From: a virus
Taxonomy: Duplodnaviria > Heunggongvirae > Uroviricota > Caudoviricetes
Virus record (IMG/VR): IMGVR_UViG_3300029305_005988
Location: 1 to 59,095 of that record
Length of the DNA stretch: 59,095 bases
Direction: 5' to 3' (one strand)
Positions within the stretch are counted from its first letter, which is position 1. Every line of letters starts with the position of its first letter. The translations under genes were made by a program, and so were the position numbers. Below the pieces are notes generated by a model, which did not search any database, had not been told where the DNA came from, and saw nothing but the letters and a program-made list of their open reading frames with translations. Shown here piece after piece: positions 64 to 50,698 of this stretch.

Positions 64-103
64 GGTCAAATTTAGATAAATGCTAACGGGGAAATCTTAT
101 ATA
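64..103 (+). promoter_or_regulatory. Putative phage promoter GGTCA-N29-TATATA inside the intron, upstream of the HE gene
   Basis: GGTCA at 64-68 and TATATA at 98-103; same 29-nt spacer as 7 other sites in the window. Confidence 0.6.
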
Positions 104-206
104 ACAGTGAGGATACAAAAAATATCCTAACTGTTATCAGACAATCCCGTGGGAAATTAAAGGATAATGATAACAGTAATATAATATTAAAAAGGAGAGA
201 AATGGT

Positions 207-1049
207 ATGTATTATATTTACTGCTACACAAACAAAATTAATCAACATAAATATGTTGGTCAAACAAACAATTTTAATAGAAGAGTAAGAGAACATCGCT
301 CATGCGCTTTCAATGAGAAGGCTTCATCTTATAATAATTTAATTCATCAAAAGATAAGACAATATGGAGAAGCCGCTTTTGAAATATCTTTACTTGAGAA
401 GCTCTACACAGAAGATATCCAAGAAGTAAATGAAAGAGAAAAATATTGGGTTAAAAAATTAGAATCTCATTGCAGTACTGGCAAAGGATATAATGTTTCT
501 TGGGGAGGAGATTCTCGAGAGCATGCTAGAACCTGGACAAAAGAAGAAATCCAAGACATGAAGCAACTCATCAAAGATAAAACACCATTTTTAGATATTA
601 CTATTAAGTATGGCGCAAGCGCCTCTTTCATTTCTTCTCTAAATCATGGTATTTATTATTTTGATGAAAATGAAGAATATCCACTTTGTAAATACTATAA
701 AGAGGATAAAGACTATGATGAATTAATTGAACTTCTATTAAATTCAACTTATAGCTTAGCAGAAATTGCAAGAATGCTAGGATTAGGATATTCCACTGTT
801 AAAAAAATTAATGCTGGAACATTAAGAAAAGGATTATATCCTTCTTATCCAATCCGAAAAATATCTGCAAATGAACAGCGCGCGAATAAAATTAAAGAGC
901 TTTTGTTAACTACTTCTTTTTCCAATAGAGAAATTGCAGAAATGGTAAAAGCTTCCGAAGAAACTGTTCGCCGCATTAAGGTTGGAGAATGTTTTTATGA
1001 TGAAAAATTAAGTTATCCTTTAAAACCCTGTAACGACTATTCCGAGTGA
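207..1049 (+). CDS. Intron-encoded GIY-YIG homing endonuclease
   Basis: N-terminal YIYCYTN..KYVGQT (GIY-YIG variant), AAGGAG RBS, C-terminal HTH-like repeats; its 3' end overlaps the intron P7/R element. Confidence 0.9.
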   Translation: MYYIYCYTNKINQHKYVGQTNNFNRRVREHRSCAFNEKASSYNNLIHQKIRQYGEAAFEISLLEKLYTEDIQEVNEREKYWVKKLESHCSTGKGYNVSWGGDSREHARTWTKEEIQDMKQLIKDKTPFLDITIKYGASASFISSLNHGIYYFDENEEYPLCKYYKEDKDYDELIELLLNSTYSLAEIARMLGLGYSTVKKINAGTLRKGLYPSYPIRKISANEQRANKIKELLLTTSFSNREIAEMVKASEETVRRIKVGECFYDEKLSYPLKPCNDYSE

Positions 1050-1159
1050 GATCGGAAGTACCTCCTCTATTGGTACGAGGCGGGAAATGGGTGTACTTAT
1101 CTTACTCTCAAAGATAAGTAAGAGATAGTCTACGCCAGTAGGAATACTGGATTTACGTG

Positions 1160-2562
1160 ATAGTTTTAGTATTATCCATGCGCTCGCTTACAGCTTCATT
1201 GGTTTCCAGACGGCATACGCCGCCACAAGATGGAATCCTATCTATTGGAATACTGCAAACTTAATTGTCAATAGTGGTTCGCTTGAAGGATATGATAACG
1301 AGGATGATGACGAAGAGGCAAAAGACAAGCAGACAGATTATACTAAGCTGGCAAAAGCGCTTGGTGATATTTTATCCGCTGGTATCGATGTGTCTTTGGT
1401 AGACATAAATAAATCTCAATTTAGTTTTAAACCCGATGTAGAAAATAATCAAATCCTTTTTGGTATGAAAGCGTTAAGTGGAATCAATAGTGAAGTTATT
1501 GAGCAGATAATAAGCGGCAGACCGTACGCGAATATCGCAGACTTCATGGAGCGCTGTCCGCTTAATAAAACGCAGATGATTTCTCTTATTAAGGCGGGCG
1601 CTTTTGATAAGCTTGAGATAGAATGGGGTAAAGAGTTAAATATTCACCCAAGATTTGTAGTAATGGCATATTATTTATCGAAAGCTTGTGAACCTAAAAG
1701 TAAATTAACCTTACAAAACTTCAATGGACTTATTCAGCGTAGATTGGTTCCAGAGTCGCTTGACTTTGAGCGCAGAGTGTTTGAGTTTAATAAATATCTT
1801 AAAGCAAATACAAAAGTTGGAAAATATTTTGTGTTTGATGAACCCTGTGATAAATTCTATAAAGATAACTTTGATATTGAAAAGTTAGAGATTATTAATG
1901 GTTTAACTTGTATTCAACAAAAAACTTGGGATGGAATTTATCAAAAACAAATGGATGGCGCCAGAGATTGGTTAAAAGAGCATCAGAGCGAGGTTTTGCA
2001 CGAACTTAATAAGCAGCTCTTTATAGATGCTTGGAATAAATATGCCCAAGGTTCTTTGTCCTCTTGGGAAATGGAATCCTTGTGTTTCTATTATCACGAG
2101 CATGAGTTAGCGAATGTTGATACCTACAAGTATGGCATTTCAAACTTCTTTGCGCTTCCAGAAGAGCCAGAAGTTGATTATTACTTTAAGCGCAATGGTC
2201 AACAAATTCCAATTTGGAAAACGCATAAAATCATTGGAACTGTAATCGCAAAGAATGATAACAAAGCATCCATTACCCTATTGACCCCCTCGGGTGTTGT
2301 AACGGTTAAGTTTACGAAAGAATATTACGCGCAATACAAGAAGCAATTGTCGGAGCTTCAAGATGATGGGTCTAAAAAGGTGACGGAGAAGGGCTGGTTC
2401 AAGAGAGGAACGATGCTACTCTTAACTGGTTTTAGACGAGGTGATCAGTTCGTAACCAAAACCTATAAGCACACACCTACTCATCAAATCTATAAGATTT
2501 CGCTTTTCAATGATGGGCGCGATATGGAATTGGTGCATGAAAGAAAGGACATGGAAGAATGA
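1160..2562 (+). CDS. dnaE: DNA polymerase III alpha subunit, 3' exon (C-terminal part)
   Basis: Frame is open from 1159: SFSIIHALAYS..WNPIYWNTA, then SLVDINKS..ILFGMKALSG..RPYANIADF..LIKAGAFD and an OB-fold-like end; no TAG. Confidence 0.9.
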
Positions 2563-2741
2563 TAATAATTGAAAAGAAAACTATTGAAAACTATGAAAAT
2601 AGTTATTCATATCAAATGGTTGTTAATTACGACTATGCTTTTGAGAGAGATATTTTAGAAAAATATCTCTCTCAAGCAACAGAAGAAAGTAAACTATTTT
2701 TAAAAAGACAGACAAAAGGAGAAAATAAAAATGGAAAATAA
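2559..2741 (+). CDS. Hypothetical protein
   Basis: AAGGA RBS; overlaps both flanking genes. Confidence 0.6.
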   Translation: MIIIEKKTIENYENSYSYQMVVNYDYAFERDILEKYLSQATEESKLFLKRQTKGENKNGK

Positions 2742-3399
2742 ATATCAAGTAGTTGCGCTCATAGGGAAAGCGGGCGCAGGTAAAGACTCAATTCAAAAGG
2801 CAACTTGTGAACTTCATCCACTCATGTTTCACCCTATTGTCAGCTGCACTACGCGTCCGGCACGAGAGGGTGAGGTAGAGGGAGTAAATTATCACTTTAT
2901 TTCACTTAATGATTTTACACGCAAAGTGCTTAATGGAGATATGCTTGAAGCAACAGAGTTTAGAGATTGGTTCTATGGAACTACTCTTGAATCTCTCTCA
3001 AAAGACAAAATCAACATTGGAGTGTTTAATCCCGCAGGAGTAGAAGCATTGCTTGAAGACTCTCGACTAGATGTTATAGTCTTTGAAGTAACTGCGCCTG
3101 ACAAACAGCGTTTAATGCGCTATCTTAATAGAGAAGAAGTCCCTGACTGTGCTGAAATGTGTAGACGATACTTTACTGATGAAAAAGATTTTTCTGCTTT
3201 AGATTTTGATAGGTATCAAATTGACAACTGGGATGGCGCAGATTTAGACCTTTTAACTGCTTCAAACAGTTGTCTTGATGCAATAAGTGAAATGTGGGAG
3301 GCGTTAGGCGCTGATACTTCATTCGAGACTATTATGCGTTGGGAAAGCTCAATGGCGACAAAGGCAGAATCAATTGAAAACGAGGTCAAAGATAATTAA
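2731..3399 (+). CDS. gmk: Guanylate kinase-like protein
   Basis: P-loop GKAGAGKD, SCTTRPAREGEVEGVNYHF, FYGT. Confidence 0.85.
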   Translation: MENKYQVVALIGKAGAGKDSIQKATCELHPLMFHPIVSCTTRPAREGEVEGVNYHFISLNDFTRKVLNGDMLEATEFRDWFYGTTLESLSKDKINIGVFNPAGVEALLEDSRLDVIVFEVTAPDKQRLMRYLNREEVPDCAEMCRRYFTDEKDFSALDFDRYQIDNWDGADLDLLTASNSCLDAISEMWEALGADTSFETIMRWESSMATKAESIENEVKDN

Positions 3400-3423
3400 A
3401 TTATTTATTATAATTTTTATAAT
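3384..3423 (+). promoter_or_regulatory. Putative phage promoter GGTCA-N29-TATAAT upstream of the nrdH-nrdD operon
   Basis: GGTCA 3384-3388, TATAAT 3418-3423. Confidence 0.65.
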
Positions 3424-3456: not shown

Positions 3457-3666
3457 ATGGATATTACTTTATATTCCACAGGATGTCCGCAATGTGCTGT
3501 CTTAAAGGCAAAGCTTGATTCAGCGGGAATTGAATACAGAATTGTCTCTGACCAAGAGACTATGGTTGCTTTAGGATTCCGTTCGGCGCCAATTCTTAAA
3601 GTTGATAATGTAACTTATAAATTTCCAGAAGCTATAAAATGGTTAAAGGAGCATGCTAATGGATAA
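3457..3666 (+). CDS. nrdH: NrdH/glutaredoxin-like redoxin
   Basis: LYSTGCPQC, SAPIL; 69 aa. Confidence 0.85.
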   Translation: MDITLYSTGCPQCAVLKAKLDSAGIEYRIVSDQETMVALGFRSAPILKVDNVTYKFPEAIKWLKEHANG

Positions 3667-11936: not shown

Positions 11937-12407
11937 TTATAGATTAAAATTTTGTGTTGGTTTGGGCGCCGGTGCAGCTTCTTTCGGTTTTGCCTAGACT
12001 AAGGATGCTTTAAAGTTAGTTAAAATTTCGTCAAGCTCGTCTTTGGTAACATAAACCGGGGCTGGCGCCTCTTTCGCAGGCGCAGTTAACTCAAACACAT
12101 TAAAGGTTGCAGTTCCATCCATATTGATCTATTTGGTGTAAATTTTCTTATTTCCTAGATCAGGGAAAACATAAAGTGAACCATCTAAATCAATCTGACT
12201 AGCTCTTGCTTCGTCGATCGAAACTACTGGACGACCTTTAATAAAATTTTGTTGCGCTGGCAATAGAGAAGGCATTGGATATGGGGCGCCGGTCATTGCC
12301 GTTTGAGTAGGGGTCTGGTCTAAAGATCCTTGAGCGGCCGCCGCGCCTCTCTAAAATTGTTGTGGCACATAATAATATGCAGGTGCCTGAGATAGATTAT
12401 TATACAT
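11937..12407 (-). CDS. Gln/Pro/Ala-rich protein, 156 aa (3 TAG; missing from the ORF track)
   Basis: AAGGAG RBS; ..IKGRPVVSIDEARASQIDLDGSLYVFPDLGNKKIYTK*INMDG.. Confidence 0.8.
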
Positions 12408-12587
12408 ACTTTTGAACTCCTTTCACTCTTGTTCAAATTTATATTAAAATTTAACTAATGCTTTTATTTAATTTTGATATAAATTTTAAAATTTAGCAGG
12501 TGAATAAAAAAATCCTCATCAATGTGATGAGGAAATCATTTTAACCCTATTCAATTAAAATTCAATTAAACTAATTCTTTCAATAAA

Positions 12588-18297: not shown

Positions 18298-18346
18298 GTA
18301 GTTTTATTTTCCTCCTTTCCAGAATTATTAATCTCTATACAAAATA

Positions 18347-18385
18347 ATATAAAAAATCATTAAATCAAAATCAACTAAAATGACC
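18347..18385 (-). promoter_or_regulatory. Putative phage promoter GGTCA-N29-TATATT upstream of the holin-like gene
   Basis: TGACC at 18381-18385 on the + strand; 29-nt spacer. Confidence 0.65.
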
Positions 18386-29556: not shown

Positions 29557-29584
29557 GAACTCACTCCTTTTTCTCTACTTTATA

Positions 29585-29623
29585 TTATAAAAAATTGAAT
29601 ATTTTCTTTAATTAAAAATGACC
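29585..29623 (-). promoter_or_regulatory. Putative phage promoter GGTCA-N29-TATAAT
   Basis: TGACC at 29619-29623 on the + strand; 29-nt spacer. Confidence 0.65.
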
Positions 29624-35325: not shown

Positions 35326-35365
35326 ATTATAATAAATAGGGTAATTATATTAATTTAAATTGACC
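35326..35365 (-). promoter_or_regulatory. Putative phage promoter GGTCA-N29-TATAAT upstream of the tape measure gene
   Basis: TGACC at 35361-35365 on the + strand; 29-nt spacer. Confidence 0.65.
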
Positions 35366-35955: not shown

Positions 35956-37671
35956 TTACAATATGCGTTTTGCCAAAGAAACAGAGATATTTTTCTATCT
36001 TGCCTCATATAATAATTTTGTGTTTCTTAATGCAGCTTCTTTTTTATTTGGACTATTATCAATAGAGTTTTCCCATGTATTTTCAAATAGCGTGTTTGAA
36101 AAATTAGGTGTAGTTCTTATAGCAGAAAAATCTTGATTATCTAAAATATCTAAGACTATTGATCCCATACTATATACTTTAACTGGAGGAAGTTCTCCTT
36201 TTTTTGCGCCACTGTTTTTATTATATACAACTAATAGCTATGCTTCTCGACCTCTTCTTCCCTAATTATAACCAGTTAATGCACTAAATAATAAATTTAT
36301 TTTTAAAGCATTCTTTGCCTTCTCTCTTAAACCATTAACTTGCTGAGCATAAGAAGATTCTTGTCCCTCACTTGGATGTTCTGCATAAATATTTAGAATA
36401 TGTTCCATAAAATAGTCAGAAGGAGCATCTGCAAGATAATTTAATAAGAAACCAGAGTCTTGTAAAGTAATTCCATTTCCTGTTTCCAAATTATAGTTTT
36501 TAAAAGACATTCCAAGTTTTTTCTTTTTATTATCAATAGTAACTGTCAATTCTGCATCAGCTTTTCCCTAAGCGCTGACTTGTGGTTTTAAAGAATATTG
36601 TACATTATTACTATTTTTATTTACTTTCTAAATATAAGATTCAATATGTCTTTTTGCTTTCTCTTTTTCTTCATCTATTGCCTTTTGAGTAGCTGATAAA
36701 AAATCCTAATCTAAAAGTCTGACCTGTGCATCTATAAAAGTTTTTTGATTTTTAACTCTAGTATGAGTTTTTCCAGAATTAGTGTTTCCTTTTTTTGCCC
36801 AGTTCTAAATTTCTTTTGCTAGCTTTTCTTCTGCAATTGGTTTTGCGTATGATCCTGCTATGTTACCAACTAATTCTGCATAAATCCAAGATAAGTTTTT
36901 ATTAATTTCACTTATTCCTGATAAAGCATTTTTTATATTTGAAATATAAGAAAATATTGCGTTGGCAATATCTAACTCTTGTCCTTCTACTGTTCGAGTA
37001 TATTCAATAGGAATTGAGTCTTTTCTTTCTAAGGTTTTTATAGTTGGATTATTTAACCAATCTTCGTTTTCTATATCTTTTTTAATATCTTTTAATGCAT
37101 CTATCGACTTCTATACAGATTTTATTTGCTCTTCTGAAAATGTCTCTAAAAGAATTTTTAAAAAACTATTTATTTTTTCTAAAGCTTTACTTTTTACACG
37201 ATAAATTGAGGCATCCCCAGGTGACCAGGTATAAAATGCAGTTTTTTTAGAGTCAAAAAAATTATTGGTTCCAGTATATTTATATACTCCAGAAACCTCG
37301 TCCCATTCTAACTTTTGCAAAATTTCTTCTGCGGTTTGAATATCCACTTTTTTACCCAACTACTAAATATATGCAATTAAAGCTTTATGTGCCTCAGAAT
37401 TCGGATCATTTTTTGCCGCTTGTAAAAGAGTTTGCATCTATTTATTTTGATTTTTTATTCTTCTATTTAAAATTATCTAAATTCTTTTTGCATCTTCAGA
37501 AGAGATAAAAAGAGGATTATTAGCAATTTGATTTTTAATACTTTCTATATGTGTTTCCATTAAAGCTCTTTCAATTGCATCTGAACCACCATAATTTTTA
37601 ATATAATCACTGGCGTAATAATAAGTATAAAACCAACCATGCGCAGATCTGTATTTTTCTCTTTTTTTCAT
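35956..37671 (-). CDS. Hypothetical tail-region protein, 571 aa (many TAG)
   Basis: Fragments at 37671, 37359 and 36549 share one frame; ends in TAA at 35956. Confidence 0.75.
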
Positions 37672-37698
37672 CTCTCTCTCCTTATCTATAAAATAAAA

Positions 37699-37727
37699 GG
37701 AAGGTGGCGCCGGGCGCGCCTCCTTCC
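37699..37727 (-). terminator. Hairpin terminator after the major tail gene
   Basis: Imperfect GC-rich stem GGAAGG..GCGC..GCGC..CCTTCC. Confidence 0.6.
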
Positions 37728-37748
37728 TCCATAAAGTGCTTATTTAAA

Positions 37749-38630
37749 TCAGACGTAATCTTCGTCAAATACTGAATCAACAACGATATTTCCGCCAACA
37801 GCATCCTCAATAATTTGAACTGCGCAAAGAACTTTACGAGTCTTATCAAAGAATGTGTAATCAGGCATTGCATCCATTGTGAAAGTAAATGTTGAAGGAT
37901 CGCCAGTTGCCGCCATGCTGAAAGTAAAGTTAGATTGAATCTTAACCTTAGGAAGTGTTAATTCTGCAGGCATATCAACTCCATCCTTCTTTCTCTTGAA
38001 TAGGCAGTTGGCTTCAACATAAAAGTAGCCAGCAAAAGTTTCAGCGTCAATTTGAAGCTCACTTACTTTACCAGCATCTTTTAAAATGTAGAAATCTACA
38101 AATGCTGTTTTTCCTTCTAAACCAGTTACCGTAATGGTAGTTTTTTCAGCTGTTGCTGTTGCTGTTTTAGGTTCACCTACAATATCGTCTCCATCCATCT
38201 CTAAAACATAAATAGGAGATACTGTATCAAGTTCTTCTGTGCCATCATACGCAGATAAAGCGTTAGCTAAATCAACTTTACCTTCATCATCAAAAGAGAC
38301 GGTTGCCGTTGCATGAACATGAACCTTTTCAGAGTCACCTTCCTTACCCTTGAAAAGACCTGCTCCAGAAAGAATAGCAAATCCAATAGGAGAAAGAAGA
38401 GCATCTTCAACAGTAAATGTTAAAGTCTTCTCTCCTTCCCAAGCAAGTAATCTTGAATTTCCACGTCCACCGGTTGCATAAACTGTTGTAGCAGCACCTT
38501 CAAGAGTAGAAGTTTTTGCACTATCGATATAAAGGACGGGTTGACCGGCTTGGAAAGTAGTATTACCAATCTTAACCTGTGACTTAGCCTTGAAAACGAC
38601 ATTGCATATTTCGCGTACGCCAAATTTCAT
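37749..38630 (-). CDS. Major tail (tube) protein; no TAG
   Basis: MKFGVREI..GGRGN..LLAWEGEKTLTFTVEDAL..FSMAATGDPSTFTF; position between connectors and tape measure. Confidence 0.75.
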   Translation of the reverse strand: MKFGVREICNVVFKAKSQVKIGNTTFQAGQPVLYIDSAKTSTLEGAATTVYATGGRGNSRLLAWEGEKTLTFTVEDALLSPIGFAILSGAGLFKGKEGDSEKVHVHATATVSFDDEGKVDLANALSAYDGTEELDTVSPIYVLEMDGDDIVGEPKTATATAEKTTITVTGLEGKTAFVDFYILKDAGKVSELQIDAETFAGYFYVEANCLFKRKKDGVDMPAELTLPKVKIQSNFTFSMAATGDPSTFTFTMDAMPDYTFFDKTRKVLCAVQIIEDAVGGNIVVDSVFDEDYV

Positions 38631-38668
38631 AGGACTTATCCTCCTTATAATTTTAATATTAAGAACTT

Positions 38669-39421
38669 TTATTCATGGAGGTCTTTCATCCAATCCTAAG
38701 GTTCTTCTAAATCTTTTGCCCCAGCCATGCGCGCCTATACATAACTATCAAAAGCTACTTTAAGCTCCCACCGCTGAAATTCATCAAATAATTGATAAAC
38801 AGTGTACTACATAAAAGAATTCATATCCTTATGCTATCCAACTGTTAATATCGAAATATATCTACTAAAGACTGCAATTTTCTTTTTACTAGTAGACGAC
38901 TATAATTCGGCAAGCTTTTGTTGTCTACGCTTAAACTTTTCCGCAATCTGTTTCGCTAATTCGCTCTACGCGTTATAAGTAGGCGCAGAGGATGCTTTTT
39001 TTAAACAAAACATCTAATTTAAGATATCTTTAAAAGCATCAAAATTCTCTGAATTAATTTCTCCACACAAAGTAGTGCTATCATTCCGATCAACAAGTAA
39101 AATTGCCATTGGAGTATAAATAACTTCATACAATGGGAAAATTAATTCTAACACTTGTTTTGCACAAGATACATTAAATATCATTGATTCACTATTATCA
39201 TTCATTATCGACATTAATATATTAAAATCTTTCTAATTGATTAATCTATTTTTGTCCTCAATATTTAATATATCTTTGCTAAAACGCAACAATTCACAGC
39301 CAATAAATAAAGCCTCTTCTCCAAGCATAGAGATTTCATATAATTTTGGCTAGTGAATGGTTACAGTTCCTTCAACAAAAGGAATATCTGCTCCAGAGAG
39401 TAAAACCAACTCATTCTTCAA
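38669..39421 (-). CDS. Tail-region hypothetical protein, 250 aa (TAG-containing)
   Basis: LSGADIPF..TIH*PKL..; ends P*DWMKDLHE; TTG start inferred. Confidence 0.7.
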
Positions 39422-39980
39422 CAAAAGGAATCTTGTCCTCGCTTCCATGAATTGCCATATAGGTTAGCGCAAAAGCACTCCAATCCTCATTAAGAACCGC
39501 TTTACTACATCCTACAAAATTAATTTGACCAATACCGGTCAATTTACTCTTATTTAAAATACCATCAATCTAACCTAAAATTTTAAAAGGTCTTTGACGA
39601 TAGTTTCCAAGATGCCAATGGTCATGGTGGCAAACAACATCAATATGAATCATAGAATCTCTAAACTCTGGATTCGTTGCATTGGGTGTAAAGTTATCAA
39701 AATGAAGTCCCATAAAAGCCTTGATTTGAGCATGTTCTGGCAACTTAATAAGAGGATCCATATTAATATACTCTTCATCAATTAGCTTTTTTAATGTATA
39801 CTCACTTACATCATAATTCTTGTCAAGAACATCTGGCGCCTAAACTACTAATAATTTTTTAAGAGTCTCTCCATGTTGACAAGACTCAACAAAAAGCTTT
39901 CGTAAAATAAGCTCCGTATCTTTTTCACAAGAAAGAAATGATGAAGTTAATGGTTTTGTATCAATTAAATTTCTCTGCAT
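39411..39980 (-). CDS. Putative tail terminator/completion protein, 189 aa (TAG-containing)
   Basis: SSFLSCEKDTELILRKLF..; AAGGAG RBS; functional call from position only. Confidence 0.65.
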
Positions 39981-39997
39981 AACAAACTCCTTTTATC

Positions 39998-41023
39998 TCA
40001 TAATGAAAGTATATTAATATTATAAGTAATATCATTCATACCTTCAACTCTATATATTAAGCTAACACTACCACTTCTGCCAGTAGTAATCTCAACTACA
40101 ACAGAAGAATCATTAGAACTCTTAATGCGGGCGCGCTTGTTGCTTAAAAACCACTGACCACCAGTTGCATTAAGAATGCTATAGGAAGCGATGTCATAAG
40201 GATATACCTCATTTGGCCCTTCAATGCTTGGAGAAACAGGCGCTGGTGCCTGTTTAAGACCAAATGTAGCTGGCGTTTCTGGTTCAGACTAGATAATATC
40301 TTCTTCAACCTGGTCCGGCGCATCTTCCCATTTATTCTCATAATCTTCTTTTAAATAAACAATCAAAATACCATCAGTTGAATATCTGTCAACTGCTTGT
40401 ACTTCCCAATTTTTCCCTAAGACTTTACATTTTTTAAATCTTTGAAAGAACTCATTTGATTCTATTGTCTTAGTAATATAAATTTCTAACGAATAATTCA
40501 AATCGTTAAAAATAAAACGCTTAGATTTTTGCCAATCGATTCCTTTCTCATCAGGACCCTTAAGATAGAAGTAATAATCTACTCCATTAATAGAAATAGG
40601 CTCAGATTCACATTGGCGCATTTGACCTCTAAAATAGGCAGTCTCTTGTAAATACTAAGAATAAACAATCCAATAAGTATCTCTATCTTCTGTTTTTCCT
40701 TTCCACTTTACAACATCACCAACGGCTAAATCAATCTTCTACTTACCAGTTGAAGTAATTTCACCTTCGGGTTTTTCTGTATTGAGACAGATATCTTCAA
40801 AAGGTATTGAAATAACTTTATCGTCTGCTTCCATTGTAAGTTTGTTTGGATTAATTAAACATCTAAACTAATTGCCGTTTTTAACTAATTCAATAGTTGC
40901 AGACTAATACGAATAAAGTAATGCCTTATTTAAGCTTCGTTCTTTATCCGCAATCATTCGGTCTATCTATCGCGCGCCGCCGCGATAGTTTAATCTTTTT
41001 TGTAAATCCGTTAAACCTGACAT
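39998..41023 (-). CDS. Putative head-closure/connector protein, 341 aa (TAG-containing)
   Basis: MSGLTDL..KALLYSY*SA..WEVQAVDRYS; single frame through the fragment at 40621. Confidence 0.7.
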
Positions 41024-41328
41024 ATTTTATTTAACTCACTTAATAGATTTAAACATTCAAAAATAATTCCTCGATATAATAAGAAATCATTTTTTTCAGT
41101 TAAATTAAAAAGTCCTTCAAGCTTACAGATTAAAGTAAATAAAACAGTATGTTGACCGAAAAACAAACTGTCCATTCCAGACAACTCCTCTAAGATAGTG
41201 GTTAAAGGTTTCTACCAATCGGCGCCCTCTTCTCTTATTGGGAGCAATTTATAAACTTGATTTGTTAATCTCTTAAGATTTGCTTGAATTGCATTGTTAT
41301 CAATATTAAAATCGTACTTTAACAGCAT
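41011..41328 (-). CDS. Hypothetical head-tail region protein, 105 aa (1 TAG; missing from the ORF track)
   Basis: GGAG RBS; ..YKLLPIREEGADW*KPL.. Confidence 0.75.
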
Positions 41329-41340
41329 GGCAATATCTCC

Positions 41341-41955
41341 TTACTATAAAGCTTTTCCGCCAGAGATAATTACCTCTTCATCATCAGTAGGATTAGTGTT
41401 TGCTTGATTTCCAACAAATTGTTGCAATCCTTTTACTTCTTCATTTAATTTTTCAATTGCGTTTTTAGCGGCAACACTGTCTATGAAAACAGGTGTTTGA
41501 GGAGGATCCATTATACTTCCAAAAGTAGATCTCATAACTCCATTTATATCTGCTTTTCTTCGCTTATATAGTCTTTGCAAATGGAATCCTTTTCTCTCAT
41601 ATTCCTTTTGCATATCTTTGAGCTTATGCATATGATTAGCCTAAGAAGTAAACTTAAAATCACTACCACTATATTTCATGCGAACTAGTTCAATATTTGC
41701 TAACTATTGTCCAATCCACTCAACGATCATATAGATTGAGATAATTTTAATCTCTTCATAAGTTAAATTTGCTTTATACATGCCAAACTCTTTATCATAA
41801 CTAAATAAATCAAAACGAGGAAACTCAAACCACGGTAAGGCGCTTTCAAAAAGATTAAACAGCATACTTTCTGTTTCTTCTTTTGTTAATTCCATATACA
41901 TATCATCTGTAATCTAATCAAGAAAGCTGTTATAAATAACATTTAAATCAGTCAT
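41341..41955 (-). CDS. Putative head-tail adaptor, 204 aa (TAG-containing; ends TAG-TAA)
   Basis: FLD*ITDDMYMELT..DFKFTS*ANHM; GAGGAGG RBS. Confidence 0.7.
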
Positions 41956-42917
41956 GTCGTTGCCTCCTCATTTAATACAGAGTCTGCTCCGCCTCCGCCT
42001 AATTCAAATTTATAATCTGTTTTATCAGATGTATTATCTAAAGTCTATAAGGCGTCTACTGCTTTTTCTAAATCTTTAACACGATTATCAAGTTCAGTTG
42101 CAAAATCACTGTCATCTTGACTTTCTACTGGAAGTTCAGGACGAGAACCAAGATTTTTATATACTATAAAAGATGATGGAAAAGTCTGCCAAACATAACT
42201 TACAGACTAGGTTTCTTTTGCAAAGCTGTTTAAAACAGAAATGGCAAACTTAACCTCTCCAGGAGCTCTCATTGCAGCTTTAGGAACATCCCATATTAAT
42301 CTAATCCAATCAATTCCACTTTCGGGTTCAGGATTAGCATCATCAACTTCTACGTCGTTTGACGATAAAAATTCTAATGTTTTTCCAGTGTTTGGATCAT
42401 AAATAGGCTCAAAATCTGCTGGTATATAATCTACCCATACAGTTTTTGTTTCATCCAAAAAAGATATTCCATCATAAGATTTCTAAATATAGAAAATAAT
42501 CTATTGAGAATTTAAATCCTATGCTAAAATTGGTGTAGTAATCTCCCCAATTCTTCTTTCTTTAATATAAATTGGAGCATGTTCATCTACTAATCCTGAA
42601 GAAAATTCAAAAGATCCAAGATCAATTATTTTCTAAGTAGCATTTTCAACATCTTCTATTACGGTTAATTTTCCCGTATATCCTCCAGCAGGAATATTTT
42701 CTTTAGAGCTTATTAAATAGCAATTTAAACCCAAAGAAAACTTATCTTGCTTTTCATCTCTAATTAAAATACAATTAAACTCTTGCTTAGCAGTATTTGT
42801 TAATATAAGAGTTTGTGGTATATAATTACTTATAATAAATATTTTAGTTGTAGTTAAAGACGCAGAATTTGTCTCTGTTATTTTAACGGAATCAAGTGAT
42901 GGTATAATAATATTCAT
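41952..42917 (-). CDS. Structural protein with a BppU-like domain, 321 aa (TAG-containing)
   Basis: Fragments at 42917 and 42458 are in frame; ..WDVPKAAMRAPGEVKFAISV..W*TFPS. Confidence 0.6.
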
Positions 42918-42943
42918 TATTAATCACCCCTTTTCTTTATATA

Positions 42944-43522
42944 TTATTCTTTGACGATAGTATACTTAGGCGCGCTCATGCGTCTTGTAGGTGTTTCAGA
43001 CTTATTTTCAACAGCATCTTCAGTTAAAGGGGTTGCGCGTCTTGTTTTTACTTCGGTTTTAACTGCAGTTTCACTTAAGCGTCTAATTTCAATAGCCTTA
43101 GTAACATCAAAGTTTGTTTTCTCTAATATAGCCTCTCTCTTGCGCATATCATTAAGATTGGTCTTAACAGCTTCATCTTTAATTAGTTGAACGACACCCT
43201 CTGGCGCAAAGTCAAGAGCATCATAAAGCTGATCAAGTGTACCACGCTCTAAAAGAAACTCTACATCCTTAGTATTATAAAAATATTCGGGCTCAGCATT
43301 AGGTAGCAATTCATCGACTGCTTCTTTGCTATGAATAATTAAATCACTTTCAATTAATCTTCTAGTGCCGGGAATTTGAATCGCTTGACGCAATTCTCCC
43401 ATAGAAACTTCTTTTACTTCATTTCCAACAAAACGTCTAATAGTATTGGATTCTGGCACATGATACGAAACAATAGAATTAGATCTATTTTCAATTCTAA
43501 TTTTATCAGTGTTATTTAACAT
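42944..43522 (-). CDS. Hypothetical protein following the capsid gene; no TAG
   Basis: AAGGAG RBS, 192 aa. Confidence 0.8.
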   Translation of the reverse strand: MLNNTDKIRIENRSNSIVSYHVPESNTIRRFVGNEVKEVSMGELRQAIQIPGTRRLIESDLIIHSKEAVDELLPNAEPEYFYNTKDVEFLLERGTLDQLYDALDFAPEGVVQLIKDEAVKTNLNDMRKREAILEKTNFDVTKAIEIRRLSETAVKTEVKTRRATPLTEDAVENKSETPTRRMSAPKYTIVKE

Positions 43523-43554
43523 ATTTTTAACTCCTTTTATCTCCTAAAAAATTT

Positions 43555-43589
43555 AAGAGGGAAGGGAAGTATATCTTCTCTTCCCTCTT
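43555..43589 (-). terminator. Hairpin terminator after the capsid gene
   Basis: AAGAGGGAAGGGAAG-N5-CTTCTCTTCCCTCTT. Confidence 0.7.
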
Positions 43590-43601
43590 GCTTTATCTTA
43601 A

Positions 43602-44639
43602 TTATCTATCAAGTGTGAGAGATGTGTTTTGATAAACACAAATATCATTATTAACGATAGCGGCAACTCCAACCTTCTTATAGAAGTGAATGCCCTTAGA
43701 CCAGTCATCATTATCCTCTTCCTTAATGCAAGTATCACCTTCAAAGGCAATCTTAACAGGCTTTTCAGCTCCGCCAGGAATAATCCAAGCATAAGCAGGA
43801 TCAATGACTTTCTTTGTATTTGTTTCATCAGTGAAAGACTGACGAAGAACAATTACTTGATGTCCCTTGTAATTACCAAGGTAACCATTTGCCCACATTT
43901 GATCCTTCATTGTGTCAGATACCCAACCCTCTGCAGGAATCATTGTAGATGCAAACTCAAATGTGCAATAGATCGTAGATCTGCCATTACCATAAGAATC
44001 GGCAACTGCAAGAAGCGCATCCATTTCACCTTCATCAAACTTATCAGTCTTAAACTTATTCGCAGTCTGAATTGTCTCAACAGTTGCGATAAGAGCATTA
44101 GCGATTTCAAGATAAATCTTGTCATCCATACCCTCCATAATAATGTCGATAAGGGTAGCCATATCAACGCGTCCATCAAGGAATTCCTCAATAGCGATTT
44201 GACAAGCTGCACCGATAGCCGATGTAGTTACTTCGTAGCTACGACCATCAAGCTTGAAAACTTCATAACGACCAGCAGAACCAACCTTGGTTACGAATTG
44301 CTTTGCACGTCTACGAGAAGCCTCAGTAATCTTTTGAGTAAAGATAGGCTTTTCACCCTGTTTATAAGTTTTAATTTCAGCGAAGGCGCCATATTGTTGC
44401 ATAACCTTGGCAGGAAGTTTATCTGTGATAATTTCTTCCATAAGTGCAAACACAACATTATGATTTTCTCTCCAAAGAGCATATGAACCAACAAGCTCTT
44501 TTAACTCATTACGAAGAGCTTGGTTTAAATCTGCATAACTATAATTAGTGCCGCTAAACGAGTATGCAACGGGAGCAGAAGGATTAGCGCCTGCTGTCTG
44601 CATTGCTAATGTACGTAAATCTTCTCTATTTAATGCCAT
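43602..44639 (-). CDS. Major capsid protein; no TAG
   Basis: 345 aa in the portal-protease-decoration-capsid order; followed by a terminator. Confidence 0.8.
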   Translation of the reverse strand: MALNREDLRTLAMQTAGANPSAPVAYSFSGTNYSYADLNQALRNELKELVGSYALWRENHNVVFALMEEIITDKLPAKVMQQYGAFAEIKTYKQGEKPIFTQKITEASRRRAKQFVTKVGSAGRYEVFKLDGRSYEVTTSAIGAACQIAIEEFLDGRVDMATLIDIIMEGMDDKIYLEIANALIATVETIQTANKFKTDKFDEGEMDALLAVADSYGNGRSTIYCTFEFASTMIPAEGWVSDTMKDQMWANGYLGNYKGHQVIVLRQSFTDETNTKKVIDPAYAWIIPGGAEKPVKIAFEGDTCIKEEDNDDWSKGIHFYKKVGVAAIVNNDICVYQNTSLTLDR

Positions 44640-44659
44640 TACTATTTCCCTCCCTTTTA

Positions 44660-45181
44660 TTATTGAATACGCATAACCTTGATGCCTTGTTGGCCATCAG
44701 GCATTGTATAAACTTTTACAACTTGGAATACAATATCGCTAGTACCTTCGGTAGAAAGGAAACCTTGAGCGTTAATCTTAAGCTCGGTTCCAACATCAAT
44801 TTCCTCAGTACCAACAAGTTCAGCCTTACCAGAAGTATTTCCCTTCTCAAGGCAGTTTGTAGTGTAAATATCTCCAACATGAGTTGCAAGAACTCTAGGA
44901 ACCATAATTCCATCATCATAATTTGTCTTTACAAGAGCAAAATCTTTATAAGACTCTCTTGCATCATAAATTTTAACTTCATTCATAACGAGCATCCACT
45001 CGCCGGCGCCTGTGAAGTTAACTTCGCCAGTTTTATAGTCATACTTTACGAACTGACCATTCTCAAGAATAGCGATATCCTTATTACAAGGAAGTTGTGC
45101 GTAAACTTGACCATTTCTTTGAGCGGATAAATGATTAGGCTCAACCTGACCAAATCCAATACGCTTAATAGTAGTAGCCAT
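44660..45181 (-). CDS. Capsid decoration/cement-like protein; no TAG
   Basis: 173 aa between scaffold and capsid genes; GQVEPNHL..GDIYTTN. Confidence 0.65.
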   Translation of the reverse strand: MATTIKRIGFGQVEPNHLSAQRNGQVYAQLPCNKDIAILENGQFVKYDYKTGEVNFTGAGEWMLVMNEVKIYDARESYKDFALVKTNYDDGIMVPRVLATHVGDIYTTNCLEKGNTSGKAELVGTEEIDVGTELKINAQGFLSTEGTSDIVFQVVKVYTMPDGQQGIKVMRIQ

Positions 45182-45201
45182 GCTATATGTCCTCCTTAAA
45201 A

Positions 45202-46623
45202 TTATTGATTTTTCGCATTATCGACTGCTTTTAACCAGTCGGGCTTAGAAGCAACGCCAAGGTCGGACACATTAAATGTCACAGCTGGTTGCTCTATTTT
45301 ATTATTAATTTTAGAGTTATCCTCTAATTCAAAATTGACCTTTTTTCTGAAACAAATTACAGAAAGTTTTTCTTCAATTTCTTCTACAGTGTAATTAGCT
45401 TTGTTTGAAATAATATCTGCCTTATCATCATCGCTAAGCATGTAGAATTTTCCAATCATTTCATCTTTCTTTGCATCGTCACTTAGTCTTTTAAATTCAA
45501 CAAGTTCTGCATGCGCAGTTTCAAGAGTTGAGAATCTAGATTGAAGATCATTGTGGACAGACTCAAGAGTAGAGAATCTACTCTGAAGATCTGCATACTC
45601 TGCTTGAAGCGCAGTAAACTGCTCCTCTATAGAAGGCGCGGACGCCGGTTCAGGATCCATAGGAGTAGGTTCAGCCGCAGGTTCTGGATCTGCAACTGGC
45701 TCAACTACAGGTTCATCCACAACAGGCTCAGTCACAGGCTCTTCAGCAACGACTGGCGCATCTTCAACAACTGGCTCTTGTGATGCAGCAAAAGAAGGTT
45801 CTGCTGGTGTCTCAGGCTCTGGCTCAAAGCTAGGTTCAACAACCGGCTCAAACTCAGGCTCAGCGCTAAACTCAACTACAGGCTCCTCGACAACAACATT
45901 TTCAACAACATCGTTGTTCATTTGCTGACCTCCTTGTAATGCAGTTTGAAGTTCCTGCATCATAGTAAATAATGTTTGTCTAAAGGTATCGTCTACCTTT
46001 GTAAAAGACGCACTAACATTTGGCGCAGTAACACTAGCGCCTTCGAAACAAGGCTCAATGTCATCGCCCAAAATGCAAAGTTTTGAAAAAATTGCGTCAT
46101 TTATAATAAAGAAATCCATGCCACGAGTATTGGTTTCCCAGTGCCCTTGTAAGGTATCTTCATCCAATTCCATTGATTGCGGCTTGCCATCACTCTCAAC
46201 GGCGGACTTACACTCTTCAAATTGACCGGTCCACAAATATCCAGTAGTCATTAGATACTCTCTCAAAATAGTTTCTCCAAAATCATTGGTATCTTCAAAT
46301 TCTTTAAACCATACCTTTGCGTCTGGAGCTACAAAACCATAAGGAACGGTTTTGCAGTTAAATTTAATGCCCTCGTCATCAATAATAACTTCACGGCCAT
46401 GGTCTCTAAAGTCTTCTTTTTCTTCCTTATAATAACCAACAATGGGCGCGCCGCGTAATGTCTTCGCCATTTCCGTTGCGACATCTTTGGTAATATAGGA
46501 TCTGTTTCGATTTTCACCGACATATAAGACCTTAATCTCACAGGCGCTCATAAGTGGATTGATATCAAGGGGTTGTAAATTGATAAACTCAGGAGAGCTT
46601 ATCGTAGCAACTGATTTATGCAT
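45202..46623 (-). CDS. Prohead protease fused to an acidic scaffold; no TAG
   Basis: N-terminal VLYVGENRN..PIVG..DHG..QSMEL; Pro/Glu-rich linker; coiled-coil tail. Confidence 0.78.
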   Translation of the reverse strand: MHKSVATISSPEFINLQPLDINPLMSACEIKVLYVGENRNRSYITKDVATEMAKTLRGAPIVGYYKEEKEDFRDHGREVIIDDEGIKFNCKTVPYGFVAPDAKVWFKEFEDTNDFGETILREYLMTTGYLWTGQFEECKSAVESDGKPQSMELDEDTLQGHWETNTRGMDFFIINDAIFSKLCILGDDIEPCFEGASVTAPNVSASFTKVDDTFRQTLFTMMQELQTALQGGQQMNNDVVENVVVEEPVVEFSAEPEFEPVVEPSFEPEPETPAEPSFAASQEPVVEDAPVVAEEPVTEPVVDEPVVEPVADPEPAAEPTPMDPEPASAPSIEEQFTALQAEYADLQSRFSTLESVHNDLQSRFSTLETAHAELVEFKRLSDDAKKDEMIGKFYMLSDDDKADIISNKANYTVEEIEEKLSVICFRKKVNFELEDNSKINNKIEQPAVTFNVSDLGVASKPDWLKAVDNAKNQ

Positions 46624-46640
46624 TTGCGTTTCTCCTCTCC

Positions 46641-48251
46641 TTAGCTCATAGCTTCTTTATTGCGAATTGTTTTTTCGCTTTTTTGATCATCAGGCTTTTC
46701 TTGTCTGCCGACTTTCTTTTTTTCAACAACTTCTTCCTACTTGTTTTCATTATTTTCAGCAGGTTTGTTGCTATTTTGAATTTTTGCTTTTGCCTCTTCT
46801 TTTTGTTGCTTAGATTGGAAGAGACTAGAAATGTCAAGAACCTCGTTTTCAAACTTTGCAGTTGCTAAAACTGCCGATTGAGATTGTCCTAAAGCAATGC
46901 TAGCAAGCAGCTTAGAGCCGCCTTGCGCGCTTTGTTCTCTATAAATTTTTGACATATCTTTATAATTATAAATTGTTGTAGGAAGTATTTCAACTTTATA
47001 ATATAACTTTTTTGGATTTTTATTCAAAGGTTTGATAATATAATTTAAAAATGACTAAAATTGAAGAAGAAGGTTATACATATTCGCTTCATCATCAAGA
47101 ATGCTCTTTTCTAATGCGATATTACCATCGGTATTAAATAAATTTTGTGCAGTACCAGATTCATTATAAACGGTTCTCTCAACCTTTTCTAATTCATCAA
47201 TAGTAGTAGCAGTATTTTTATCTGCCATATCAGCAACTTCTACCTCTGCAAAAGTTGTTAATACATCAATACCAATAGCCTTACCTAACATTCTAACAGC
47301 ATTATTATGAAGCTGTTGTGCTTCATCAACATCAAATATCAAATCGCCATTTTTATCTAATGGCATTTTCTAAATAATGATTTTGAGAAGCTTTTGAGCC
47401 ATTTTCTTTCTATCCAACTCTTGAGCGGCATCCAAATCAATAATATGTGGAATAACCGAAATAAAAGGAGGATAATCTTCGCCATTAATATTAAATTTCA
47501 TAGTATGCTCTGGGTCGAGCAAATACCATCCCGCAGTATCTCCAGGAAAGTCTGGAATTAACTATCCATTAATATAAGCAGTATATCCTTTTTGAAAATC
47601 TCGTGGAAACATTTTTAAGATACGAAGGCGCTGATCTTTATCTTTATAGAAGTCATCAAAAAACTTCATGTTAAACTCTACTGCCGGACGTCCCTTTACG
47701 CTATATCTTGATCTACAGTATCTTGGCAAAAGCTCTTGCACTTGCGCAGTATCTGTATCCTCAATAATATATCCGTAATAACACCCTTGGCGCATTATTT
47801 TTAATGCCACTTCGCCAAAATACTCTTTTACGCCAAAAGCATCGAGATAAGCACTATTTTTATCAAAACCTTCAATAATCTTATCTGGAGTAACTTTATT
47901 TGAAGTAGCATAAGGAATAATGAACCAGTCGTATCTATAAAAATTAGCAAGGTGTTTACAAAGTCTAGAATAAATACCACTTACTTTAAAGTAGAACTCA
48001 GAAGCCTCTCTCATAAACTCTATATCGCCTCTAGCAATAGCCTGCTAAATACGCTCTTTTGTCATACGAGGATCAAGTTTCTTATAATTACCCAAATTAA
48101 CGACTGCGTCGTCAAGATGTCTAATTCCTACTTTTATCTTTGAATAGTCCAACTCTGGAATAACATTTCCATCTACTGGAGCACTTCTTGGGGTGCTTAT
48201 ATCAAAACCTTTAGAATGAATCTCTTGTATTCTGTTATTCAAGTTAAGCAC
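46641..48251 (-). CDS. Portal protein, 536 aa (5 in-frame TAG)
   Basis: Fragments at 48251, 48014, 47366 and 47027 share one frame; ..III*KMP..; ends GRQEKPDDQKSEKTI.. Confidence 0.82.
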
Positions 48252-48268
48252 CTCTTCTTTCTCTAAAT

Positions 48269-48297
48269 ATTATATTCAAAATTTTAAATCTTGTCAA
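48269..48297 (-). promoter_or_regulatory. sigmaA-type promoter upstream of the portal gene
   Basis: TTGACA-17-TATAAT on the - strand. Confidence 0.8.
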
Positions 48298-48659
48298 TAA
48301 CCAGCAGCCTTAAAAATATAGTCATAGTTTATTCTTCCTTCGTCATAGTAAGGAATTAAAACCAAGGGAATATTGTGTTTTTTACAATATTCCCTTTTTA
48401 ACATATCATAGTATTGCTATTGGCGTAAACCTGCTACACCGCCAAATTTAGACTTGGGCTCATAATGTTGGATACCTTGATATTCAATTAAAAAATCAAC
48501 TTCTCCATCATCATCTAAAACCGCAAAATCAAAACGCAAAGGGGTTTTAGTATGTCCAACAAGATCTGGAAATGAATATTCTTCAGTAAAAGAGACACCC
48601 GCTTCAGTTAAAATATCACAAATTTTAATCTCTCCGCGACTTGCTTTCACTTGTATCAC
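48294..48659 (-). CDS. Small PD-(D/E)XK/Vsr-like nuclease, ~121 aa (1 TAG)
   Basis: SRGE..LRFDFAV..LIEYQGIQHY..D..KREYC..IPL; the start may be the GTG at 48650. Confidence 0.75.
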
Positions 48660-48672
48660 TCCTTTACTATTG

Positions 48673-48713
48673 TTATATAAAAAATGTGTAATATAGTTTA
48701 TTTAAAATTGTCC
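48673..48713 (-). promoter_or_regulatory. Putative phage promoter GGACA-N29-TATATA
   Basis: TGTCC at 48709-48713 on the + strand; 29-nt spacer. Confidence 0.6.
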
Positions 48714-48722
48714 GAAATTTTG

Positions 48723-49871
48723 TTACGAGAAGAACATCATTTCAGATATGTTTCTTTTCTTTCTTTTTCTACTACGATCTTCCTCTTGTTTAATATAATA
48801 TAAACCATATTCAAAAGCAGAAAATTTATCTTTGGGAATACTTCTTGAAGACTACTTAAGAATAATATTAACACCTTCGTTGTCTTCTACTAAATTTAAT
48901 AATTGCTCGCGCAAGATGGTGGTTAAAGTAAAAGGTTTTAGATACTCTGCGCGCTTGGCCGCATCCATTTCCTATCCCATCTTAGTTGTCATCAATTTAG
49001 TTTTAGCCTAAGTTTCATCTATTAATAAATTAATTTTACCACCAACTAATTGAGTTTGAACATAAGTATGTGCTTCTGTATTAATAGGCGCATTAGCTTT
49101 AATTAAATACATAGCATTTTCCTCAACACCGGGACCCTTAATTTTCTTATACTATTCATTAAACTCGTCTGAGGTTCCGCCTTCAACTCCAAAAGGAGGT
49201 AAATATTCTCCTGTTTCTGGATCTTCTTGACCTTTTGTCATAAAGTCAATTAGACCTGCGCCAAGACCATTCGCGTCTATTGCCGCAATACGCGCCTTGT
49301 ATTTATAAAATAACTTCTTAATTTTAATAGCTTGCGCTTCAAAGTCCTCTGCTTCATAAGAATAGAGATTAACTAAAGATTTATGTGCAGCGCCCTATAT
49401 CTATGGAGTAACTTTAAATACACATACCTCTGTAGTGCATTTAAAACGGCCAACGTCAATTCCTAATACATAATAACCATTTTTAGAGGTGCGGCCAGAG
49501 AATTCATATTCTGGCTGTAATAATTGACGATGTTTATCAAACTTTTCTGCAGAGAAAAACGCATTTTCGGCATCTCCAGACCACTCTGACTCATATTCAC
49601 GGCTAAAAGATGCATCATTATAAGTTCCATCAAGCTTTAATTCCTCAATAAAACTTTTCTTCAATAATTTTTCCATAACAGGAATGCGCCAAGTTCCACC
49701 CATAACAACTGCTTCATCAGGGTAGATAATCTGACGAATAAGAAGTTCTATAAGTTTCTCGTATGCGAAGCTGTTTTTCCATCCTGCGGTAGTCACATAA
49801 ATCTACGATTTGTTAACAGTCTCATCTTCTATACGAGAGCCGTCTGAAAGTCTTCGGTCTACGTTCATGGT
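48723..49871 (-). CDS. terL: Terminase large subunit, exon 2 (TAG-containing)
   Basis: TMNVDRR..KS*IYVTTAG..YESEWSG..YVLGIDVGR..IAAIDANGLG..DKFSAFEY. Confidence 0.9.
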
Positions 49872-49885
49872 CAAGAAAACATCTA

Positions 49886-50605
49886 TTAGATGTCTTCTTG
49901 GACTATATCATCAACTAATTTCCATTTATAACCTTTGTGACGAATATTCATACCACTGCATACTCTGCTAATGGCTGAAGAGGTCCCATCTACGGCTCTC
50001 GCCGCTTCTTTGAAACTTGGAAAAATTGCCAAAATATTTCCATTTTCATCACATTGAGCAACCTTTTTGCCCGTTATAAATTTTTTCTCAATTTTGGTCA
50101 CATCTTGAATATCATCATAATATCTCCATTGGTAATCATTAGCTGTCTATCTTTGACGTCTGCAACACATTGTGATTTTGCTTTGTGAACCGCCTGTTTG
50201 ACGAGCTGCCTCAGAGACACTTTCAAAGGTTGCCATCTGCACACCGTCAAGATTATATTGAATTACTGGTCTTGCCCTACCGGACATGAATAAACCAGTT
50301 TCTATAGCATGCTGAGTATTTTCTGAGGGAGTAACCCATTCTAAATTCTCAACATTATTATCTCCACGATTACCATTAATATGATTTACATAAGGTTTCT
50401 TTTCTGGATTGTCAAGAAAAGTTTCAGCCACCATTCTATGCACTCTCATTCTTTTTTGTTTTCCTGCTATAAGCAAAGTTACAAATTTATAATCCTGCTA
50501 AGAAGATTGTGATAAAATATAGTCTGTTGTGTCTTTTCTTACTACCCCTTCTGTTGAAACACTATAATCTGTTTCAACACCTTCAAAATAAAATTTTTTC
50601 CACAT
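49886..50605 (-). CDS. Intron-encoded HNH homing endonuclease (NUMOD-type), 239 aa (2 TAG)
   Basis: AAGGAG RBS; VHRMVAETF..VNHINGNRGDNNVENLEW; two NUMOD1-like repeats; the 3' end overlaps the intron S element. Confidence 0.9.
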
Positions 50606-50658
50606 AATATTACTCCTTTTGATTTACATTCTATCCCGGGATTATTCCCTTTCATGAA

Positions 50659-50698
50659 TATATAAAATTTAAAGTAGCAATATTATCAAAATTTGACC
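50659..50698 (-). promoter_or_regulatory. Putative phage promoter GGTCA-N29-TATATA inside the terL intron
   Basis: TGACC at 50694-50698 on the + strand; 29-nt spacer; upstream of the HNH gene. Confidence 0.65.

Follow-up and report, generated by a model that had tools for sequence, protein, structure and literature searches.

A GGNCA box at a fixed distance from an ATATA-type hexamer marks a putative non-early promoter class in TAG-reassigning phages

Here we describe a recurring DNA element in a 59,095-base window, which is the first part of the 123,095-base IMG/VR virus record IMGVR_UViG_3300029305_005988. The record is estimated to be 78% complete, and the source phage is large and uncultured and comes from the gut or rumen. 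The element joins a GGNCAA box to an ATATA-type hexamer at a fixed spacing. A preliminary description of the window, made from the sequence alone, had proposed that it represents a phage-specific middle or late promoter class, and this proposal is supported by conservation of the element among related phages, its strand bias, its fixed spacing, its position relative to gene starts and selection at synonymous sites. We infer that the non-early transcription units of the phage, both middle and late, have this element, referred to below as class 2, as their promoter.

These results give an initial outline of how transcription is programmed in a large clade of uncultured, TAG-reassigning phages, comprising at least 125 confirmed IMG/VR loci that encode a relative of the protease/scaffold protein used as query. 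In this outline, consensus host-type promoters would serve the early genes, while a distinct, box-dependent class would serve the recoded structural genes and several homing endonuclease genes.

Results

The motif and its spacing in the window

All eight sites listed in the preliminary description, which had given the motif as GG(T/A)C(A/T)-N29-TAT(A/T), are present in the window, and seven of them hold up as copies of the motif (Table 1; sites are named by the first base of the box). The remaining one, at 41115 on the minus strand, failed the comparative tests and is a chance match, its Gly-Leu codons drifting freely at synonymous positions in about 40 relatives. The loose pattern GGWCW-N29-TATW occurs 11 times in the window against 3.8 ± 1.95 times in shuffled sequence, with none of 100 shuffles reaching 11. 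A matrix built from the eight sites gave leave-one-out scores of 16.6-33.7, compared to a best score in Markov-shuffled genomes that averaged 11.0 and reached a maximum of 16.6. Three additional loose matches (1523 and 46531 on the minus strand and 23333 on the plus strand) look like chance occurrences, as they are richer in G+C and are not followed by a ribosome-binding site and start codon.

The spacing of 29 nt, which had been called invariant, was confirmed by counting GGTCA-Nk-TATAWW: there are six matches at k = 29 and none or one at each other value of k between 10 and 49. Across the 123-kb genome, all six exact GGTCA-N29-TATAWW sites fall inside the window, and a control in which the genome was read backwards yielded none. 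Window matches with gaps of 27, 28, 30, 31 or 32 were found only within coding sequence or as register shifts of known sites. The sites are positioned 54-143 nt from gene starts, in agreement with the earlier claim. It had also been stated that none of the sites has a TTGACA -35 hexamer, which is essentially right: motif positions 12-17 show the consensus a-w-T-a-A-t, and the sole partial match, TTGATT at 17-bp spacing, occurs at one of the eight sites (18385).

Conservation across related phages

A search with the protease/scaffold protein retrieved 80 related loci (47-81% identity) from phages with genomes of about 100-144 kb, and the motif was found in all 80 of them, with one to five copies in every locus. 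The matrix derived from the window alone made 98 matches on the late-gene strand of these loci and three on the other strand. After two rounds of refinement, and at a score of at least 20, the matrix returned 219 matches, of which 217 were on the late-gene strand and two on the other; third-order Markov or reversed-sequence controls put the expected number at about three. Fixed-gap matches were used to train the refined matrix, and both the unrefined matrix and a half-site test agree with the picture that it gives. When the two half-sites were scanned independently, 153 distinct pairs were separated by a gap of 29, and each other offset between -8 and +8 yielded 12 or fewer; slippage along TATATA accounts for several of these off-register pairs. 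Peaks in the relatives at spacings of 16, 32 and 42 were traced to conserved coding sequence and are not promoters.

A profile of 154 distinct sites resolved the individual positions of the element. Within the box, G1 and G2 are conserved in 99-100% of sites, N3 is A in 63%, T in 18% and G in 14%, and C4 (97%), A5 (99%) and A6 (90%) follow. In the spacer, T14 (79%) and A16 (96%) stand out, and downstream a run of T ends in T34 (99%) and is followed by A36 (97%), T37, A38 and then T/A and A/T. As read from this profile, the family consensus is GGNCAA, T14 and A16, a T-run and nATATA. The pentamer first proposed is thus better written as GGNCA(A), with a third base that is free across the family. 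The motif is conserved across phages ranging from 28% to 41% G+C, and at orthologous promoters, such as that of the HNH gene adjoining the portal gene, the box and the hexamer are kept and the spacer sequence diverges. At 58% of the sites, compared to 6% of random positions, the hexamer is followed after 20-60 nt by a ribosome-binding site and by the start codon of a frame at least 40 codons long. In the structural regions of phAss-1, Lactococcus phage 949 and Enterococcus phage H1, which share the protease, no site scored above background (best scores 13.8, 9.1 and 8.4, respectively).

The family matrix also revealed two embedded sites in the window that the preliminary description had not listed, both on the minus strand: 39257, which is strongly conserved, and 45340, which is found in close relatives only. 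Outside the window, the same genome contains four more sites with a GGNCA box (69525 and 71638 on the minus strand, 102075 and 104407 on the plus strand), and a weaker, doubtful match at 79198 on the plus strand carries TTTCA in place of the box. Two TATCA variants had been noted upstream of the genes at 12407 and 52725. We rejected the latter (site 52797), which has a family score of -4.3; a true site is present before this gene in some relatives only. The former (site 12479) is doubtful, as its score stems from the A+T-rich part and the hexamer but the GG, invariant in 99% of sites, is missing from it.

Selection on a copy inside a coding sequence

The embedded site 39257 is kept in all four complete or near-complete relatives examined. 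Among 35 distinct relatives (38-72% protein identity), Asp at this site is encoded by GAC in 35 of 35, a codon that accounts for 16% of Asp usage in the family, and the preceding codon ends in G in every case, across GAG, CAG, TAG, AAG and GTG. Similarly, all of these relatives use TTA for the Leu that supplies T14 and A16 and TTT for the Phe, and their Ile/Val codon invariably has A as its last base. The fixed synonymous positions are exactly the invariant positions of the motif, and we therefore conclude that the DNA word itself is under selection. The copy clearly illustrates how codon choice can be shaped by a regulatory signal. The gene that comes after it, 37749-38630, begins about 600 nt downstream and encodes a TAG-free virion structural protein, which is probably the major tail protein.

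A contrasting class of early promoters

Between 54 and 67 kb, the plus strand carries about 19 promoters that match TTGACA-N17-TGnTATAAT almost perfectly, each of them preceding a small gene (the first five, which fall inside the window, are included in Table 1), and similar dense clusters of early promoters occur in four complete or nearly complete related genomes. The array resembles a host-takeover early module. In addition, a promoter broadly of the early type, TTGATT-N17-TATAAT, lies directly before the amber-suppressor transfer RNA (tRNA) gene (ARAGORN reports an odd tRNA at 101316-101414).

Compared to the early promoters, class 2 has neither the -35 nor the TG and carries the box in addition. 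The early promoters carry TGn before the hexamer, whereas class-2 sites have a T-run in this place and G at -14 in 21% of cases. Across the family, A36 is conserved as given above and the last base of the hexamer is A in 72% of sites; in several window sites this base is T, and three hexamers in this genome are TATAAT. The near-perfect promoters of the early genes indicate that the host consensus is known to the phage, from which class 2 departs systematically.

Class-2 sites precede the recoded structural genes, a TAG-free nucleotide-metabolism block (behind site 3384) and several homing endonuclease genes (starting at 207, 48659, 50605 and, outside the window, 102145). Because they are not confined to structural genes but also stand before nucleotide-metabolism and endonuclease genes, 'non-early' is a safer label than 'late'. 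The class-2 elements provide defined DNA for testing the proposal that recoding and timing act jointly on late genes.

A proposed mechanism and its parallels

Our model divides the element into three parts. The GGNCAA box would be located at about -46 to -41 and hence, as the preliminary description had correctly noted, one turn of the helix upstream of where a normal -35 lies. The place of the -35 would be taken by an A+T-rich stretch that is weakly specified and contains the conserved T14 and A16, and the T-run would lead into the nATA(T/A)(A/T) hexamer at -12 to -7, with transcription expected to start about 7 nt past the hexamer. Bacterial RNA polymerase most likely reads the -10 part through a sigma-A-type factor. 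Because there is no -35 hexamer and no TG extension, polymerase alone should be unable to use class-2 sites; its recruitment or stabilization would fall to a sequence-specific phage protein, expressed from the consensus early promoters, that binds the asymmetric box around a centre near -43.5. Conserved bases fall at positions 3, 15 and 35; with 12 and 20 bp between them, they would lie roughly on one face of the helix.

On balance, we think it probable that class-2 promoters are read in this way, by host polymerase together with an early phage activator on the asymmetric GGNCAA box. We infer both the dependence of these promoters on an activator and the proteins that are candidates for this role. 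Of the two options raised at the outset, an activator is thus favoured, while an unusual sigma factor is disfavoured, the only sigma factor of the phage being SigA-like and missing from complete relatives that keep the motif. The box, the 29-bp spacing and the hexamer together form a precise bait for a transcription activator that is probably new.

The closest parallel is found in phage Mu, where the middle and late promoters (Pm; Plys, PI, PP, Pmom) show a recognizable -10 and no usable -35, are transcribed by the host holoenzyme and carry the Mor or C site immediately upstream of the position of sigma region 4 (PMC4390567, PMC2582627). At Pm, the site of the Mor activator is centred at -43.5 (PMC4390567). 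Class-2 promoters similarly combine a -10 and the lack of a -35 with a site near -43.5, given that the box spans -46 to -41 relative to the predicted start, and class II activators bind at the same position. However, each of Mor and C binds as a dimer to a 16-bp dyad element, whereas the box is a 6-bp asymmetric word, and we found no conserved inverted partner of GGNCAA in the 154-site profile between -30 and +80. A further difference is that a Mor-family gene was not detected here and that the host appears to be Gram-positive-like. In phage T4, the switch from early to middle transcription is made by early phage proteins and uses a MotA box and a sigma-70 -10, together with AsiA. T4 middle promoters resemble class 2 in having a phage box in place of the -35 and in keeping a host-type -10, but the MotA box is centred at -30, compared to about -43.5 here, with a weak second element near -32.

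Other known systems fit less well. At T4-type late promoters, which depend on gp55, the -10-region TATAAATA alone is sufficient, whereas GGNCA is 97-100% conserved at a fixed spacing in class 2. Canonical sigma-A promoters, represented here by the early class of the phage, resemble class 2 of this genome in a TATAAT-like -10, the family hexamer mostly ending in A, and in a likely start about 7 nt downstream; class 2 lacks both TTGACA at 17 bp and TG and has a conserved box 29 bp upstream of the hexamer. Sigma-54 promoters carry GG at -24 and GC at -12, ten bases apart, whereas no GC follows ten bases on from the GG here, positions 12-13 being A/G and A/T. Literature searches returned nothing relevant on a GGACA late promoter or on promoters of recoded phages, and the phAss-1 paper makes no mention of promoters or sigma factors.

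Candidate activators were sought among the 55 frames common to five genomes, in which the unexplained non-structural frames include two winged-helix proteins (111524-111775 and 114149-114553). Both are conserved in the five genomes and lie behind consensus-like early promoters, and we regard them as candidates only. The second (134 amino acids) matches HTH_27 and has a MarR-like fold. Its fold was considered as a link to the box and set aside, since it is a generic MarR/ArsR-type winged helix (mean predicted local distance difference test score, pLDDT, of 73) with no tie to the box.

Several observations weigh against an activator working with host polymerase. The candidate proteins are named only for being conserved, early and DNA-binding, and no match to the Mor (PF08765), MotA C-terminal-domain (PF09158) or AsiA (PF09010) profiles was found in the 78%-complete, 123-kb record, in which remote homologues are possible. 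The dyad sites of Mor/C or CAP have no parallel in the box, a short and asymmetric word, and the embedded site 39257, at its distance from the next gene, would give rise to an unusually long leader. With respect to transcripts, no RNA dataset matched the 10-kb stretch 41001-51000. One bovine-gut metatranscriptome run matched the capsid-like gene with a small word share, and on 35001-54000 only Logan contigs were found, which are mostly <90% identical and therefore come from relatives; the sole RNA run thus consists of contigs of relatives, and contigs cannot show transcription starts, so that the run speaks neither for nor against the model. Finally, a hexamer that so often ends in A is a poor sigma-A -10, which could hint at another recognition subunit.

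Alternative readers of the box

Such a subunit might be a cryptic phage factor, sigma-like or T4 gp55-like, that replaces sigma-A and reads nATATA while a co-activator or a second domain reads GGNCAA. The A-ending hexamer and the invariant T34 and A36 are not a sigma-A signature and many phage late sigmas escape profile searches. A 237-amino-acid protein with a sigma-region-4-like helix-turn-helix (HTH) moreover sits in a class-2 operon at 70481-71194. We nevertheless consider this reading rather unlikely, as no second sigma-like gene was detected in the genome, three hexamers here are perfect TATAAT and the region-4-like protein was found in only one of five relatives tested, a distribution that also led us to discard it as a universal reader. 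Among the large genes of the genome, none was seen to encode a phage RNA polymerase. An unlikely alternative is that GGNCA is a -35-type word for a domain resembling sigma region 4 that is positioned one more helical turn upstream than in any known holoenzyme; region 4 of sigma could be moved by a phage adaptor, or a stand-alone region-4-like protein could dock on polymerase. If true, sigma would here be appropriated in a new way, with the fixed 29-bp distance acting as a ruler. The single sigma gene of the genome (95833-96714, 293 amino acids), which belongs to a block of same-strand, apparently early genes behind a consensus-like promoter at 90926, could also read class-2 promoters directly, with GGNCA as a displaced -35-type element. 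It has regions 1.2, 2, 3 and 4 (and no region 1.1), and GGACA resembles the GACA core of TTGACA and shows the same third-base tolerance. This is very unlikely, however, because a sigma-70-family factor spans 16-18 bp and cannot bridge 29 bp, and the protein, which is closest to SigA of Clostridioides and Bacillus, has no insertion relative to SigA that might extend its reach. Its DNA-contact residues are almost those of SigA, with SKERIRQ in place of TRERIRQ in region 4.2, the His and Glu of region 3.0 kept and conservative changes in region 2.4. Furthermore, of seven relatives tested four have the gene, and in G004, which is 97% complete, and G007, which is 100% complete and has terminal repeats, neither protein nor Pfam searches detected a sigma gene although positive controls matched in the same search. 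These two sigma-less genomes carry 14 and 9 class-2 sites with scores up to 40, and the SigA-like sigma of the phage is therefore not the reader of the box.

The box might instead be bound by a host protein, either an alternative sigma factor or a global regulator of the Spo0A type, which would tie the late genes to the state of the host. The 0A box has the consensus TGNCGAA, and the reverse complement of the class-2 box, TTGNCC, shares TGNC with it, including the free base; conservation of the motif in phages of such different G+C content could reflect a conserved host factor. On the other hand, G5 of the 0A box is replaced by C in at least 97% of sites, and a clade-specific phage factor would better explain why the box keeps a strict distance from the -10 and is confined to one phage clade, so that we judge a host protein to be distinctly unlikely. 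We give least credence of all to the idea that the repeats are not promoters and instead represent mobile regulatory cassettes, terminator or processing signals, or sites for a replication or packaging protein. Several copies do overlap hairpins that place the -10 in the loop and are followed by a T-run, and several adjoin homing endonuclease genes, but the hairpins are found in a minority of sites and differ in sequence, the conserved bases being those of the box and the hexamer and not of the stems. In addition, the sites precede ribosome-binding sites and are oriented with the genes, and their orthologous positions before core structural genes are kept.

As a separate observation, a GFNF tail is common to two otherwise unrelated proteins, the 237-amino-acid region-4-like HTH protein and a 321-amino-acid conserved protein of the replication module (L083:15542-16507), and may be a docking motif.

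Individual sites and their surroundings

Table 1. Putative class-2 promoters, rejected and doubtful matches and early promoters in the window, with scores from the family matrix.
Feature	Coordinates	Strand	Context	Score
Class-2 promoter, GGTCA-N29-TATATA	64..103	+	before GIY-YIG homing endonuclease gene 207-1049	26.2
Class-2 promoter, GGTCA-N29-TATAAT	3384..3423	+	before NrdH/thioredoxin-like gene 3457-3666	29.5
TATCA variant, doubtful	12440..12479	-	before gene 11937-12407	23.6
Class-2 promoter	18346..18385	-	before 168-amino-acid gene 17791-18297	20.8
Class-2 promoter	29584..29623	-	before 88-amino-acid open reading frame 29290-29556	32.3
Class-2 promoter	35326..35365	-	before tape measure gene 29673-35276	35.1
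Class-2 promoter, embedded	39218..39257	-	inside coding sequence 38669-39448	41.1
Rejected site, GGACT	41076..41115	-	inside coding sequence	6.2
Possible class-2 promoter, embedded	45301..45340	-	near 3' end of protease/scaffold gene	35.1
Class-2 promoter, GGACA	48674..48713	-	before HNH endonuclease gene 48294-48659, adjoining portal gene	
Class-2 promoter	50659..50698	-	before HNH homing endonuclease gene 49886-50605	32.9
First five early promoters	54048..58600	+	starts 54048, 55654, 57166, 57962, 58558	

Site 18385 has orthologous sites in relatives G002 and G005, and it is immediately preceded by a G+C-rich hairpin that resembles a terminator and has a T-run. Site 45340 is located upstream of 44660-45181 and of the capsid-like gene 43602-44639; its box is intact in close relatives only, the relatives mostly having GGTTA. 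The NrdH/thioredoxin-like gene behind site 3384 is followed by the TAG-free nucleotide-metabolism genes.

About a fifth of the family sites contain an inverted repeat centred on the hexamer. At the tape measure promoter, the -10 lies in the loop of a hairpin (35300-35345, minus strand) whose stem covaries among relatives and which is followed by a T-run, and a terminator therefore overlaps the promoter. At 29612-29660 on the minus strand, GGTCA of the 29623 promoter forms the 3' arm of a perfect 12-bp hairpin followed by TTTTT, such that the upstream terminator and the promoter box have bases in common. Participation of GGTCA in a hairpin is not general and holds at 29623 only.

Homing or HNH endonuclease genes are repeatedly found behind class-2 promoters, even in early or replication regions, as seen for the three such genes in Table 1 and for 102145-102996 elsewhere in the genome. 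This arrangement recalls the delayed expression of the T4 intron endonucleases. A terminase-large-subunit-like frame (48723-49874) and a conserved 206-amino-acid frame (50889-51509) flank an HNH endonuclease insert and 283 non-coding bases, suggesting that the terminase gene around 48723-51509 may be split or intron-bearing. An Rfam scan of the window found no family at the gathering score, and hence no intron was called at the endonuclease inserts.

Source phage, host and recoding

Distant kin of the phage, as judged by protein similarity, are phAss-1, Lactococcus phage 949 and large Bacillus and Enterococcus siphophages, and megablast of 10 kb against GenBank phages returned no near-identical record. 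A Gram-positive (Bacillota)-like host is indicated by the strong ribosome-binding sites and by the TG extension of the early promoters.

Under the standard code, the minus strand between 12 and 53 kb contains short frames, which become long genes once TAG is read as glutamine. These include the genes for a 1,867-amino-acid tape measure protein, the portal, the protease/scaffold protein and virion structural proteins. Among the late genes (minus strand, 12000-53000), the tape measure gene has up to 49 in-frame TAG codons, and the TAG-free frames 35366-35884, 37749-38630, 42944-43522, 43602-44639, 44660-45181 and 45202-46623 encode proteins that are probably abundant. ARAGORN additionally reported a tRNA with anticodon TCA ('SeC') at genome positions 85295-85370, which could be a TGA suppressor, and reading TGA as Trp modestly improved frame coverage around 55-70 kb.

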